From an uncultured Acidimicrobiales bacterium (GTDB taxonomy: Bacteria; Actinomycetota; Acidimicrobiia; Acidimicrobiales; UBA10347), in the NCBI GenBank assembly GCA_937942965.1, contig CALDGN010000114.1:1-36303 (forward strand): a DNA stretch of 36,303 bases, in the 5' to 3' direction. Below are positions 30,328 through 35,048 of this stretch, piece by piece. Every line of letters starts with the position of its first letter. Positions within the stretch are counted from its first letter, which is position 1. The notes under the pieces were generated by a model that searched no databases, was not told where the DNA came from, and worked only from the letters and a program-made list of their open reading frames with translations. The translations under genes were made by a program, and so were the position numbers.

Positions 30328-32586
30328 CTAGTTCTTGGCCGCCACCATCTGCTCGGGGCGCCCGGCGATCACACCGTCAGCACCACGCCCGATCAGCTCG
30401 CGATAGAACGCTTCGTTCTCTTGCGACGCAGCGTCGTCGGGCCATACCCAGACCTCGAGACCTTGCTCGTGGGCGGTCGCGATCCGCTCCGCCGTCGCGA
30501 CCTCGAGGCCTTGCGCAAACGGCGGGATCTGCACGATGCGGAAATGCTCTTCGAGTTCGGTGCCGAGCAGCACCCATTCCGTCAGCCGGTCGAGACCGGG
30601 ACTCACGTCGACGGTCGGCGCCAGTTCGTGGAAGCGGTCGACGATGCCGTCATCGAACGACACAACCACGGTCGAGTCGAGGCGACCGAGATCGGTGAGC
30701 TCGACAGCGAGCGCCTCAGCCACGGCAAGTGCTTGGTCACCCTCGCCCTTGATCTCGATGTCGAGTGGGAGCGCAGGGAATCGCTCTGCGACCTCGCGCA
30801 GCGTTGCGACCGAGAAGTCATCAGCTGAGTAGCCGTTCGGTGGTTCCTTGTCGCCGGTGCGGACACCTCGCCACAGGTAGTCGGCATCGGGGAGGTCCCG
30901 GCATGGCCAACACGCAGGCGAGAACCAGTACGCATTGTCGAGCTGGTCCAGTTCCTCGTACGTCAGATCTGCGATCAGCCCAGTGCTATTCGTCGTGCCG
31001 TCAACGGTGAGGTCGTGCTGCACGACGACGACGCCATCAGCGGTGGTCAACACGTCGAGTTCGAGGACGTCAACGCCCGCGGCGACCGCTTCGCCGTAGG
31101 CGAACAGGGTCGAGTGCGGCGCGGCTTGATCGCCACCGGCGTGCGCGATCGCGAGCACGTCGTCGCGGGCCAGCAGGTCATCGATCGAGGCGGCTTCGCC
31201 TTGGCCGGACTCGGTACACCCATCGACGGCTGGCTCACCGGCAAAGCGCCCGTTGAAGAACCGAAGCAGATCCGGAATGGCCGCCCCGGTCGTCAGCACG
31301 CCTGCGTGGCTCTGCCCGGGATAGACGATGCGCTCGGTCGCTGCCTGATCATCGAATGCACAGAGCTGCGAGAAGAGGGTCGCCGACGTTTCAACCGGGA
31401 TCTGCTCGTCCTCGCCGCCGTGGATGATCAGCAGCGGCTGGAGCACGGGCAACTGATTCGTGTCCTGGGCTTCGATGGCGGGACCCCACGTCGGCAGGGC
31501 GAATGGATCATCGACCTTGGTGATCTCTTCGTACGCCAGGCCGTTGTAGACGTCGAAGATCTCGCCGGTGCAGCCGGTCTCGACCACGTCGAGCTGGGCG
31601 AGCGCCGAGTCGGTGAAGACCTCGCTCAAGTCGATATCGGGATACGCAGCGGCGAGGCCAGCTGACGTCATCACCAGGTAGCCCTGGAAGTCACCGCCGA
31701 CCAGCGAGTCGCCCAGGTCGCTCATCTGCGACGGCGGTGCGCCAGCGACGGTGCCGATGAGTTCGAGCTCTGGCGCATAGGTCGGTTGCAGCTGCGCGGT
31801 GAACATCGCCGCATGCCCGCCTTGAGAGTGACCGAACGCGATCCATTCGGTCGTCACGGGAAGATCCATCTGTTGGACGGCCCGCACTGAGTCGAGCACC
31901 GAGTGCGCTTCGCTGGCACCAACGACGTAGGGATGCGTGCCGGGCGTGCCGAGACCCTCGTAGTCAGTGGCCACGACGGCGAAGCCGAAGCTGGTGAGGG
32001 CGTCGGCGAGCTGGTCGCCTTCGGCATTGATGCTGGGCGCACACGTGTCACCGAGACCCGTCGTGCCGTGGGCCCAGGCGATGAGGGGCCAGCCCCCGGC
32101 CGGCGCTTCGCCGGCGGGAAGGCGAACGAACCCGGACACGGCGACGTTGTCGCCGATCGCGGAGGTCGAGTGATAGAGGATGCGGGCACCTTCACCCGTG
32201 TCGAGAGCGAGCGGTTCGACATCGATCAGCTCACCAGGCGCTCCTGCCGGGAGCGGCTGAGGGACTTCGAGCTCGCCGGGCGCGTCGTAGGAAGCGGCGC
32301 TCGTCGAGCCGTCACTGGAACTGCTCTCGTCGGCCACATCGGAGTCGGTGTCGCTCGACACATCTGCGCTCTCGTCCGATGCGCTCGCTGCCTCTTCGGA
32401 AGTGGCGTCCTCGGTACCAGCTTCGGTCGCTTCGTCGGCGACTTCTTCCGCAGTGGCTTCGGGGTCCGCCACGGGCTCGGAAGTTTCGCCGCTCGAGCCG
32501 CACGCGGCGGTGAACAGTACGACGGCGAGCACGAGCCAACCGGCTCGAGTCACGGTCAAGAAGCGAGCGCCCAGGGGATGCGACAT
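30328..32586 (-). CDS. Lipoprotein: secretory lipase (alpha/beta hydrolase) fused to a glycerophosphodiester phosphodiesterase-like domain
   Basis: Lipobox-like FTAAC and acidic linker; AWAHGTTG, CAPS, TDYEGLG, GHSQGG, HGGEDEQIP; then IAHAGG, LELDV, VVQHD, DIEIKG, VVSF. TAGCTT -10 lies 6 nt before the ATG. Confidence 0.88.
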   Translation of the reverse strand: MSHPLGARFLTVTRAGWLVLAVVLFTAACGSSGETSEPVADPEATAEEVADEATEAGTEDATSEEAASASDESADVSSDTDSDVADESSSSDGSTSAASYDAPGELEVPQPLPAGAPGELIDVEPLALDTGEGARILYHSTSAIGDNVAVSGFVRLPAGEAPAGGWPLIAWAHGTTGLGDTCAPSINAEGDQLADALTSFGFAVVATDYEGLGTPGTHPYVVGASEAHSVLDSVRAVQQMDLPVTTEWIAFGHSQGGHAAMFTAQLQPTYAPELELIGTVAGAPPSQMSDLGDSLVGGDFQGYLVMTSAGLAAAYPDIDLSEVFTDSALAQLDVVETGCTGEIFDVYNGLAYEEITKVDDPFALPTWGPAIEAQDTNQLPVLQPLLIIHGGEDEQIPVETSATLFSQLCAFDDQAATERIVYPGQSHAGVLTTGAAIPDLLRFFNGRFAGEPAVDGCTESGQGEAASIDDLLARDDVLAIAHAGGDQAAPHSTLFAYGEAVAAGVDVLELDVLTTADGVVVVQHDLTVDGTTNSTGLIADLTYEELDQLDNAYWFSPACWPCRDLPDADYLWRGVRTGDKEPPNGYSADDFSVATLREVAERFPALPLDIEIKGEGDQALAVAEALAVELTDLGRLDSTVVVSFDDGIVDRFHELAPTVDVSPGLDRLTEWVLLGTELEEHFRIVQIPPFAQGLEVATAERIATAHEQGLEVWVWPDDAASQENEAFYRELIGRGADGVIAGRPEQMVAAKN

Positions 32587-32630
32587 GCCCCGAAGCTAGC
32601 CCCGTATTGCGGAACGATGACGATCGGTGC

Positions 32631-32800
32631 AACGGGGAAGATGCGCTGGCGCCCCCGGGTTTCCCTTGCCTAACGAGCCCGTTTCTTGCCGGTGGTTCCC
32701 CTCCCTCTGTCATCGGCTGGAAACGGCGCCTCGTGCTCGGCCCACCCGACAACGTTCTGGGGCACCCGGTCCATGGCAGAGGGTCCGGGTGCCTCAACTA
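32631..32800 (+). ncRNA. Candidate structured small RNA: long interrupted hairpin with central bubble and C-rich apical loop, followed by a terminator-like hairpin
   Basis: Nested stems GCCCC/GGGGC, GCC/GGC, ACGAG/CTCGT, CCGTTTCT/GGAAACGG and GCCGGTGG/TCATCGGC with G-U pairs on the + strand; 3' hairpin GGCACCCGG/CCGGGTGCC. Ends approximate. Confidence 0.55.
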
Positions 32801-32825
32801 TTTGGCCAGCACCTTGGCGCTGCGC

Positions 32826-33296
32826 CTAGGACGCGTCGCGGTGGAGCGCGGCCCGCAGATGGTGGGTCAGCGGTTCGCCGACCGCTGCCATCGACACCGT
32901 GTACGCGAGCGCGTCGTCGGTGACTTCGATGGAGCGGACGACATCGGTAACCGACTTCGCCGCGGGTGTCGTATGCACGGCATGCAGCGTGAGATCGAGG
33001 CGGGTTCCAGCGACGCGTCCGCCATGCAGCTCGACGATGCCCGACGGCTGCGACAGCACGAACTCGATGCGCTCCTCGCCGATCGCACGGATGTAGCCCG
33101 TCTCCGCATGCAACGGCTGGCCGGTTTCTGCATGCCGGGTCTTCTGCGAATACGCGAGGAACGGCTTGCCGACGTGACCGAAGGTGACCTCTTCGAGATA
33201 GGTGAACGACTCGATGGTCGGGTACTCGCCCTCGCCCTGCCCTCGCCAGGTGCCGAGTAGAAAGGCGAGCGGGGCGCAGTCCTCATGCAGGTCCAT
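32826..33296 (-). CDS. Nitrobindin / FABP-like beta-barrel heme-binding protein
   Basis: PLAFLLGTWRGQGEGEYPTI, YLEEVTFGHVGKPFLAYSQ, PLHAETGY and C-terminal HLRAALHR with the heme His. Confidence 0.92.
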   Translation of the reverse strand: MDLHEDCAPLAFLLGTWRGQGEGEYPTIESFTYLEEVTFGHVGKPFLAYSQKTRHAETGQPLHAETGYIRAIGEERIEFVLSQPSGIVELHGGRVAGTRLDLTLHAVHTTPAAKSVTDVVRSIEVTDDALAYTVSMAAVGEPLTHHLRAALHRDAS

Positions 33297-33319
33297 CCCG
33301 CAATGATGGCCCGAAAATC

Positions 33320-33840
33320 GGTTTGTGCCCGACCGCCGGAGCGATCGGGCACGGTAGGAGATCTTCCACCGACGACGACTGATGCGTTGCCGGTGGCCGC
33401 TCACAAGCCAAGGTTCAGGCGACGTGCCTCGCTGCAGGAGTCACGGCCGGCTGCGTCGATGCCGGGGAAGTTGTCGAGTCGCTATGTGCGACCGACACCG
33501 ACGCGTGCCGCCAGGGCTTGGGTGGTAGTCCTTCCCACGCCGCCGGATGGAGGGGAGTGTTCCAGTCGGCGTGGGGTGTTCTTTTGCTGGTTCGTAGCGA
33601 TTGGATGCGGGAGGCTCGGTTTCTCACGTTGGTGGCGGTTCGCATGTAGTTGAAACGCCGTGAGCTGGCCCTGTGGTCCGCGATTGCAACATCTCGGACA
33701 ATTGGATTCGGGTTGGTTGCTGTTCGGTGCTCTGCCCGCATGGATTCATGATGAACGGATCGCTGGCTTCGGTCCGTGTGGCCCCACACAGAAGCCGCGT
33801 GACGGTCGCTACGGCGCGAATCCCCATCGCCCCACAGTCC
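33320..33840 (-). ncRNA. Candidate long structured non-coding RNA or leader in a ~700-nt intergenic region
   Basis: Structured blocks at 33743-33823, 33534-33575 (loop ACACUCCCCUCCA), 33363-33470 and 33325-33352; G-U pairs in the last three favour the minus strand; no convincing ORF. Confidence 0.4.
33325..33352 (-). terminator. 12-bp hairpin with UCCG tetraloop, probably ending a minus-strand transcript
   Basis: Minus strand GTGCCCGATCGC-TCCG-GCGGTCGGGCAC; the single non-Watson-Crick pair is G-U only on the minus strand. Confidence 0.6.
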
Positions 33841-34001: not shown

Positions 34002-35048
34002 GTGCCGGAGTGGACTGCAGAAGTGATCTCGTGGGTGTGTGGCGCGGGCGGAGTCGGGCTCGTGCTCGGCTGGCTTGTTGGGCGTTTCGGTGGTGGCCGT
34101 GTGTCGCGCGCCGAGTACGACTCGATCTATACCCAAGAGCGTTCGTTGCGTAACGAGCTACGCGACACCAAGGCGCATCAAGCTGCTGTCGACGCCGAAC
34201 TACGTGGCCTACGCACCCGCAACCTGACGCTCGAGGGCGAGCTCGATGCCAGTCAGCGCATCGCTGGCGAAGCGCGCGACGAGGCCACGGCCCATGCGAC
34301 CCGCGAGCTCGAGGTGCACGAGCTCGAAGGCGTCAACGCTTCGCTGCGGGCTGAGCTCGAAGCCGCCCGGATTCGCTACGCCGAGCTCCATGGCCAGCAG
34401 GCGCAGATCTTGGCCGACTTCGAAACAGCATCGGCGCAGATCGAAGCCCACGACAACGCGCAGGGTCGCATGAGCGGCGAGCTCGAAGATGCCCAGCAGC
34501 GCGCGTCGGAACTGGCCGAAGCCAACGCGTCGATCACGGCCGATCTCGACTTCGTCGCCAACCGGGTCGATGATCTTGAGAAGCGCACCGCCGTCGCCGC
34601 CGACGGCCTGTATCTCGCACGTGCTCGTGTGTCCGAAGTCGAGGGCAAGCTCGCGGCAGCACTCTCTGCGCTCCGCTCCGCGTCAGGCGATCTGTCGGCC
34701 GTGCAGGACGACATCAATGCGGCCGAGGCTGGCGCCACGGTTGCTGCGTCCGCGGAACCGACGGTGGCAAGCGAGCCAGTCGCAAGTCAACCAGTGGCAG
34801 CCGAGCCGGACACCAGTGAGCTGGCGACCGAGATGGTCGATGACAGCGTCTTCGATCTGCCCGCCGCAATGGGGACCGACACTCCCCCAGCCGCCTCCGA
34901 ACCGCTCGACCTCACCGATGCGTTCGACGCCACGGATCCGATCGATCTGACCGAAGACGCCTCCGAGCTCGCAGGCAACGGAGTCGACGCCGCCGCAGAC
35001 GCAGCCGAGGTTGCTGCCAAGCGAGCGGCGAACATCGACGCCTGGTAG
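34002..35048 (+). CDS. Membrane-anchored coiled-coil protein with acidic low-complexity C-terminus
   Basis: AAGGAG SD 6 nt before the GTG; N-terminal TM segment (GVGLVLGWLVGR), ~200 aa of heptad-like helix and a D/E/A/P-rich tail. Confidence 0.75.
   Translation: MPEWTAEVISWVCGAGGVGLVLGWLVGRFGGGRVSRAEYDSIYTQERSLRNELRDTKAHQAAVDAELRGLRTRNLTLEGELDASQRIAGEARDEATAHATRELEVHELEGVNASLRAELEAARIRYAELHGQQAQILADFETASAQIEAHDNAQGRMSGELEDAQQRASELAEANASITADLDFVANRVDDLEKRTAVAADGLYLARARVSEVEGKLAAALSALRSASGDLSAVQDDINAAEAGATVAASAEPTVASEPVASQPVAAEPDTSELATEMVDDSVFDLPAAMGTDTPPAASEPLDLTDAFDATDPIDLTEDASELAGNGVDAAADAAEVAAKRAANIDAW

Follow-up and report, generated by a model that had tools for sequence, protein, structure and literature searches.

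6S RNA is a rod of ~180 to 200 nucleotides in which a large central bubble separates a long closing stem from a terminal stem; it binds RNA polymerase holoenzyme and is a template for product RNA. In Firmicutes, small RNAs (sRNAs) of the RsaE/RoxS type carry exposed C-rich motifs that pair with Shine-Dalgarno regions; CCUCC is the core of the anti-Shine-Dalgarno sequence of 16S rRNA. In Mycobacterium tuberculosis, according to a published study, the C-rich loops of 6C RNA bind mRNA targets directly, and a chaperone is not needed (PMC6486639). For Ms1, another study describes conserved neighboring genes that encode a HAD-IB hydrolase and an oxidoreductase (PMC9130861).

We report here an element with features of both kinds of RNA. 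Like 6S and Ms1 RNAs, it is an imperfect rod with internal loops, noncoding and intergenic. Like 6C RNA (Rfam RF01066; B11 in mycobacteria), it is actinobacterial and has a G+C-rich stem with a single-stranded C-rich loop. The element is a real, conserved and structured feature of the + strand, found in four species of one genus of Acidimicrobiales. A first-pass annotation of the window, by which we mean the entire 36,303-nucleotide stretch of DNA analyzed, had described it as a 6S-like rod that could not be assigned to a family. Its strand, its exposed loop and its lack of a known family are borne out by our analysis, and its likeness to 6S is not.

The element occupies an intergenic gap between two minus-strand genes, as the first-pass annotation had it. 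Coordinates of all features are collected in Table 1. The source assembly is a metagenome-assembled genome, 74% complete, and the sequencing runs that contain the region are marine or aquatic metagenomes. We refer to this genome as G000 and to the other species of the genus that carry the element as G005, G008 and G001.

Table 1. Features of the locus, in window coordinates
Feature	Position	Strand	Basis or remark
Giant ORF, 4992 residues	15196-30174	-	36 DUF11 repeats and CARDB/DUF7507-type domains
LIP+GDPD gene, secreted enzyme	30328-32586	-	left neighbor of element
Intergenic gap, 239 bp	32587-32825		flanked by two minus-strand genes
Element, ~200 nt, three hairpins (P1, P2, P3)	32600-32800	+	
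P1, 5' hairpin	32600-32637	+	RNAalifold on four orthologues
P2, imperfect rod, 93 nt	32656-32748	+	predicted minimum-energy fold
P2 apical loop UUCCCCUCCCUCUG, C-rich, 14 nt	32696-32709	+	predicted fold
P3, 15-bp G+C-rich hairpin, one bulged U, loop AUGGCAGA	32758-32796	+	predicted and comparative fold
Tail AACUAUUUGGCC, 3' of P3	32797-32808	+	AACCUUUUUGGGCC in G005, AACCCGUCGGCCC in G008, none in G001
Nitrobindin gene, THAP4-like heme-binding beta-barrel	32826-33296 (open frame to 33404)	-	Pfam PF08768, E 1.7e-50
Structured RNA candidate (second block), ~370 nt	33305-33680 (conservation to ~33830)	-	alignment, folding
Second-block hairpin	33534-33575	-	apical loop ACACUCCCCUCCA at 33548-33560
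348-residue protein	34002-35048	+	read from translation

Several observations concern the flanking genes. The LIP+GDPD gene looks leaderless: on the minus strand (window 32584-32598), a TAGCTT box lies 6 nucleotides before its ATG in G000 and G005, and the G008 version of the box, at the same distance, is TACCTT. Immediately downstream of this gene, the giant ORF encodes a giant surface protein. The 348-residue protein begins with a membrane segment at its N terminus, has a coiled-coil-like central part and ends in an acidic tail; it matches no Pfam family, and its G001 orthologue is 51% identical. Nitrobindin translation probably starts at the ATG at 33296 (MDLHEDCAPLAF). The longest open reading frame begins at a GTG (33404), which would extend the protein by 36 residues, rich in arginine and absent from G001; the G001 orthologue starts with MDLH.

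On the + strand, the segment 32631-32800 has a predicted energy of -80.1 kcal/mol (z -2.28), and 2 of 200 shuffled sequences fold equally well. The corresponding values for the minus strand are -69.4 kcal/mol and z -0.03, with 94 of 200 shuffles equally good. When the rod is folded alone, its z score on the + strand is -4.08 in G000, -4.11 in G005, -4.97 in G008 and -5.23 in G001, and in each case no shuffle of 200 does as well. On the minus strand, the scores in the same order are -1.15, -1.01, -2.80 and -2.00, and for G000 the rod is equaled by 28 of 200 shuffles.

The first hairpin, P1, lies outside the structure that the first-pass annotation described. Its core, UUGCG..CGAU-GACG-AUCG..UGCAA with GACG as the loop, is at 32607-32632, and the spacing of its blocks is conserved in all four orthologues. 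Outer CCCC/GGGG pairs are present only in G000, G005 and G008. In G001, the core helices survive sequence changes (C-G to G-C and U-A to U-G). On the opposite strand, the P1 stretch overlaps the -35 region of the LIP/GDPD promoter in G000, G005 and G008.

The rod was first drawn as five nested helices spanning 32651-32763. A rod is indeed predicted on the + strand, but it is the 93-nucleotide P2. The outermost GCCCC/GGGGC closing helix of the earlier drawing is absent from the predicted fold, and inspection of G001 by eye shows no equivalent there. What was taken for a pyrimidine-rich bubble is mostly paired in the predicted fold (CGGGU/ACCCG and CC/GG), and there is no conserved bubble, because the lower part of the rod differs between orthologues. 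Conservation is concentrated in the upper part (~32674-32735), a rod of ~21 base pairs composed of a CGAG/CUCG helix followed by middle and apical helices. The exposed C-rich apical loop was correctly recognized. It contains CCCCUCC in all four orthologues, its mean unpaired probability is 0.99 to 1.00 in full-length folds of each, and this motif is the sole sequence-conserved feature within P2.

A GC-rich hairpin does follow the rod, as initially noted, and corresponds to P3. It had been called terminator-like, but no U tract is present directly 3' of the stem, as a canonical intrinsic terminator would require. The stretches that follow it in the orthologues are AACUAUUUGG, AACCUUUUUGG, AACCCGUCGG and UCGCGUACG, and a terminator scan of the element returned 0 terminator-like sites. 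Within P3, 35 nucleotides (32761-32795) are identical in G000, G008 and G001. Two stem positions have changed in G005 (G-U to A-U and G-C to G-U), and both changes keep pairing on the + strand only. In alignment columns, two genomes have G-U and two have A-U at pair 166/200, and pair 168/198 has gone from G-C to G-U in G005. Because the loop as well as the stem is invariant, P3 probably does more than stop transcription.

Comparative analysis favors the + strand as the functional one. RNAalifold, applied to the four orthologues, predicts 51 pairs on the + strand at -56.4 kcal/mol, of which 8 are changed on both sides. An independent run on the minus strand gives 42 pairs at -40.4 kcal/mol, and the apical helix is lost. 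When the pairs are counted genome by genome, 187 of 200 cells are paired on the + strand (93.5%), including 23 G-U pairs, and 3 are A-C; with this structure transferred to the opposite strand, 167 of 200 cells are paired. The argument that G-U wobbles fix the strand, made earlier by inspection of a single sequence, thus agrees with the alignment.

Pairs with changes on both sides are more frequent than expected: 8 were found, compared with 2.9 +/- 1.2 in shuffled alignments, none of 500 of which reached 8, and controls in which partners were slid gave 0 to 3. Such changes are frequent in helix 6 of the count, which belongs to P2 (7 of 16 pairs), and compensatory changes are present in the apical helix of G008. 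This covariation is suggestive rather than proof: the alignment has no more than four members, three of which are fairly close to one another, and the structure itself comes from these sequences.

The most distant orthologue, G001, illustrates how the element varies. Here the rod is kept with other stem letters (GAGUGUCG/CGACACUC, GGUCG/CGACC and UUCGGCG/CGCCGGG), and G001 also retains P3, the CCCCUCC loop and the length of the rod. Conservation in this rod is of shape rather than of letters. Identity of the element to that of G000 is 87% for G005 and 79% for G008, and for G001 the BLAST match consists of 35 nucleotides of P3 at 100%. In the adjacent nitrobindin coding DNA, G000 and G001 share only 73.5% identity. 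We also considered a small open reading frame running through the element, but its frame is broken, and length differences in G005 and G008 are not multiples of three.

The element is present in four of nine genomes of the genus. It was not found in the other five, three of which are 94% complete, by BLAST, by pattern search or with a covariance model; in those five, the model yielded a spurious 20-bit match inside an open reading frame and a 17-bit partial match. A pattern search of 401 genomes from the order, with at most 3 mismatches allowed, returned exact matches from the four known genomes only. It also returned 7 matches with 2 to 3 mismatches, compared with 8 for a reversed control pattern, and we attribute these to chance. 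A covariance model, R1, was run on 150 genomes of the order, including G000. At E <=1, it matched 29 genomes; G000 scored 157 bits, and the next best score was 26.7 bits (G107), for a match that lacks the C-rich loop. An unpublished genome in this sample, G049, gave two chance-level matches and is not the basis of any claim made here.

Searches with the P3 core extended the survey. A metagenome scan gave one match, which is unrelated; contigs of species-representative genomes gave only the three known relatives; and viral contigs gave 0 matches. The DNA runs that we examined contain no new variant of the rod, and a contig from run X5 carries the changes of G005. The first-pass annotation had noted that many dispersed copies would mark the element as a repeat; it is single copy in its own genome and in every genome that carries it.

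No Rfam family accounts for the element. Rfam models applied at their gathering thresholds to the window gave no match, and a permissive search of 32400-33000 (E <=10) gave two chance matches to microRNA models only (E 0.39 and 6.6). This agrees with the earlier statement that it could not be assigned to a family. The 6S model (RF00013; gathering score 46.4 bits) has no match at 32400-33000 at E <=10 and none in five whole genomes of the genus at E <=1; the 6C model, RF01066, also has no match at 32400-33000 at E <=10.

6C RNA offers a close comparison. The conserved single-stranded C-rich loop of 6C is found in P2 (CCCCUCC, four of four orthologues), and the loop motif of the element, UCCCCUCCCUC, resembles the loops of the genus's own 6C-like RNA, UUCCCCCA and UUUCCCCCUC. 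That RNA is a separate locus, at G000:C258:3955-4035 (L055:1501-1581) with orthologues in L056-L059. It occurs once per genome in five of five genomes tested, scoring ~30 bits against a cutoff of 47 for RF01066. One of the five is G002, which lacks the element, and we therefore rejected the possibility that the element is the 6C orthologue. The 6C-like RNA comprises two canonical C-loop hairpins and a U-tract tail, GUUUUGGG, and its gene has a conserved promoter, TAGACA-N17-TA(G/C)C(G/A)T.

The element differs from 6C in that it has one C-rich loop, in P2, rather than two adjacent C-rich-loop hairpins, and in that it is ~200 nucleotides long with three hairpins, compared with ~80 nucleotides. 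Moreover, the 6C-like gene has a clear promoter and a U-tract terminator, neither of which is seen at the element: no sigma-70-type promoter (TTGACA/TANNNT) is found upstream on the + strand in any of the four orthologues. The exposed C-rich motif is likewise reminiscent of RsaE/RoxS RNAs, which are unrelated in lineage and sequence.

We tentatively favor, at a little under even confidence, the hypothesis that the element is a lineage-restricted RNA that acts in trans, with its C-rich loop used for pairing in the manner of 6C. Pairing in trans through the loop is favored because the loop is conserved, unpaired and contains CCUCC, and because the 6C loops of M. tuberculosis bind mRNAs. In this mechanism, the DNA at 32600-32800 would encode a + strand RNA of ~200 nucleotides that is limited to part of one uncultured marine genus. 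The exposed loop of P2 would form several G-C pairs with G-rich, Shine-Dalgarno-like stretches in mRNAs, and this pairing would alter the translation or stability of the target. P3 would provide the 3' end, or a module for stability or protein binding. By analogy with 6C, the element probably works by G-C-rich pairing of its loop with mRNAs and without a chaperone.

Our analysis shows the fold and its conservation, the preferred strand and a loop that is both accessible and conserved; separate transcription, action in trans and targets are inferences. A scan of the whole G000 assembly with the loop found many G-rich, Shine-Dalgarno-like sites, none of which is outstanding. That no sigma-70-type promoter was found, and that no U tract follows P3 directly, counts against a trans-acting sRNA. 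So does the arrangement in G001, where the element lies upstream of nitrobindin on the same strand, which fits a cis role too.

The arrangement in G001 arises from an inversion. In this genome, nitrobindin is inverted relative to both flanks (window 32836-33313 versus L032:1491-1967). The inverted segment comprises the gene, ~17 nucleotides upstream of its ATG and a short 3' stretch with a small hairpin. One breakpoint practically abuts P3, at most a few bases from its 3' end, such that the element is directly upstream of the gene and P3 ends 22 nucleotides before the ATG. The statement in the first-pass annotation that no + strand gene lies downstream, which served to set aside a cis-leader, is therefore true of the window but not of G001. 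In all four genomes, the element adjoins nitrobindin, where the first-pass annotation had suggested looking for homologues, and the fold is the same in each. The left neighbor is LIP/GDPD in three genomes and an RHS-repeat gene in G001. The wider neighborhood of G001 is unchanged, with the orthologue of the coiled-coil gene just past an extra MFS gene, which indicates a local rearrangement rather than transfer. In G000, G005 and G008, short inverted-repeat-like tails (AACC..UUUU..GGGCC) bracket the nitrobindin cassette.

These observations could be explained if the element were a cis-acting RNA module of the nitrobindin cassette, which we judge unlikely but deserving of serious consideration. 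Such a module would be a leader or attenuator where the gene points away from it, as in G001, and a convergent terminator, an insulator or a source of antisense RNA where the gene points toward it, as in G000, G005 and G008. The terminator or attenuator stem would be P3, with CCGGGU from the rod base as a competitor for its 5' arm. This role is consistent with the constant proximity to nitrobindin despite a differing left neighbor, with the short distance and shared strand in G001, and with the failure to find a promoter of its own. Because the inverted segment has just ~17 nucleotides upstream of the ATG, transcription of the gene in G001 may come from the flank. Also, the 3' arm of P3 recurs on the 5' side of the rod base, as CCGGGU or, in G005, as CUGGGU, and so, as read from the sequences, an alternative pairing is possible. 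However, in three of the four genomes no + strand gene follows, and yet the element is kept, with compensatory changes in G008. The C-rich loop has no evident partner in cis, and the start region of nitrobindin has no G-rich Shine-Dalgarno sequence. Moreover, neither the lower rod nor the proposed alternative pairings keep their register among the orthologues.

The near-invariance of P3, loop and stem, across four species is a constraint that a mere terminator would not need, and it raises another explanation, that of a protein-binding or decoy RNA. We regard this explanation as improbable. Its C-rich loop and P3 would be recognized by an RNA-binding protein, or the GAGGG of the P3 loop would titrate C-rich loops of the 6C type. 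In G000, the sequence AUGGCAGAGGG of the P3 loop and 3' arm is complementary over 11 base pairs to the rod loop, in its 3' half. By eye, the same complementarity amounts to ~10 of 11 in G005, ~9 in G008 and 5 in G001, and its decay in G001 argues against this role. In addition, the GGG of the motif is already paired inside P3, and we know of no candidate protein partner for the element.

The position of the inversion breakpoint so close to P3 in G001, and the inverted-repeat-like tails that bracket the cassette in the other three genomes, would also fit an element that functions as DNA. Such an element might be a hairpin recombination site or the relic of a mobile element, with the RNA-like fold being incidental. 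This seems quite improbable to us: the element is single copy in every carrier, viral contigs gave no match, no recombinase was noticed alongside, and in P1 and P2 the compensatory changes and the G-U asymmetry indicate selection on a folded single strand.

Beyond nitrobindin, as seen from the element, there is a second conserved noncoding block, which is probably a structured RNA on the minus strand (Table 1). It is found in exactly the same four genomes as the element. Its alignment shows long stretches without change, and its indel lengths are not multiples of three; z is -4.26 on the minus strand and -1.29 on the + strand, and RNAalifold predicts 95 pairs, 9 of them changed on both sides, with 28 G-U cells and 2 A-C cells. 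It has a terminal hairpin followed by an invariant tail, AAACCGAUUUUCGGGCC, which the tail after P3 resembles in inverted form. Rfam searches of this block gave no match. RNA run X16, available as contigs only, includes a 257-nucleotide contig that covers 33367-33623 of this block; the element is uncovered in the run, which speaks neither for nor against its transcription.

The element and the second block converge on nitrobindin from opposite strands, and the CCCCUCC loop motif occurs in both. Since the RNAs lie on opposite strands, the loops are alike, not complementary. We rejected homology or complementarity between the rod and the second block, as local alignment scores of 17 to 25 do not exceed the 95th percentile of shuffles (25 to 26), and an 8- to 10-mer shared by the two has no statistical support as homology. 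A speculative scheme, to which we assign little credence, would combine these parts. Nitrobindin would be a small autonomous cassette between two convergent CCCCUCC-loop RNAs, flipped between species, such that the RNA upstream of the gene reads into it as a sense leader and the other runs convergently toward its 3' end. With the 6C-like RNA as a third member, they would form an expanded set of C-loop riboregulators wired to a heme- or NO-binding protein, and the inversion might be a switch and not a single accident.

Finally, an RNA polymerase-binding RNA that imitates an open promoter, such as 6S or Ms1, would suit the rod shape and a niche that is formally vacant, since canonical 6S is undetected at E <=1 in the five genus genomes searched, but it is highly improbable, and both identities were rejected: the element has no RF00013 match even at E <=10, its 93-nucleotide rod is much shorter and has small internal loops that differ among the four orthologues instead of a conserved central bubble, it is patchy (four of nine congeners) whereas 6S has a housekeeping distribution in a lineage, and, compared with Ms1, it is ~200 rather than ~300 nucleotides long, with LIP+GDPD and nitrobindin as neighbors in place of the HAD-IB hydrolase and oxidoreductase genes described for Ms1 (PMC9130861).

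A loose query of the literature found no sRNA work on Acidimicrobiia or Acidimicrobiales, which is not proof of absence. The reach of the present finding is limited to four uncultured species, known here from sequence alone. If transcribed, the element would represent a regulatory RNA family from Acidimicrobiales that is absent from Rfam release 15. If the trans-acting RNA that we favor is correct, pairing through C-rich loops, experimentally shown for mycobacterial 6C, would be reused by lineage-specific RNAs that exist beside 6C. The locus is also a natural experiment, in which the same RNA is accompanied by its neighboring gene in either orientation.
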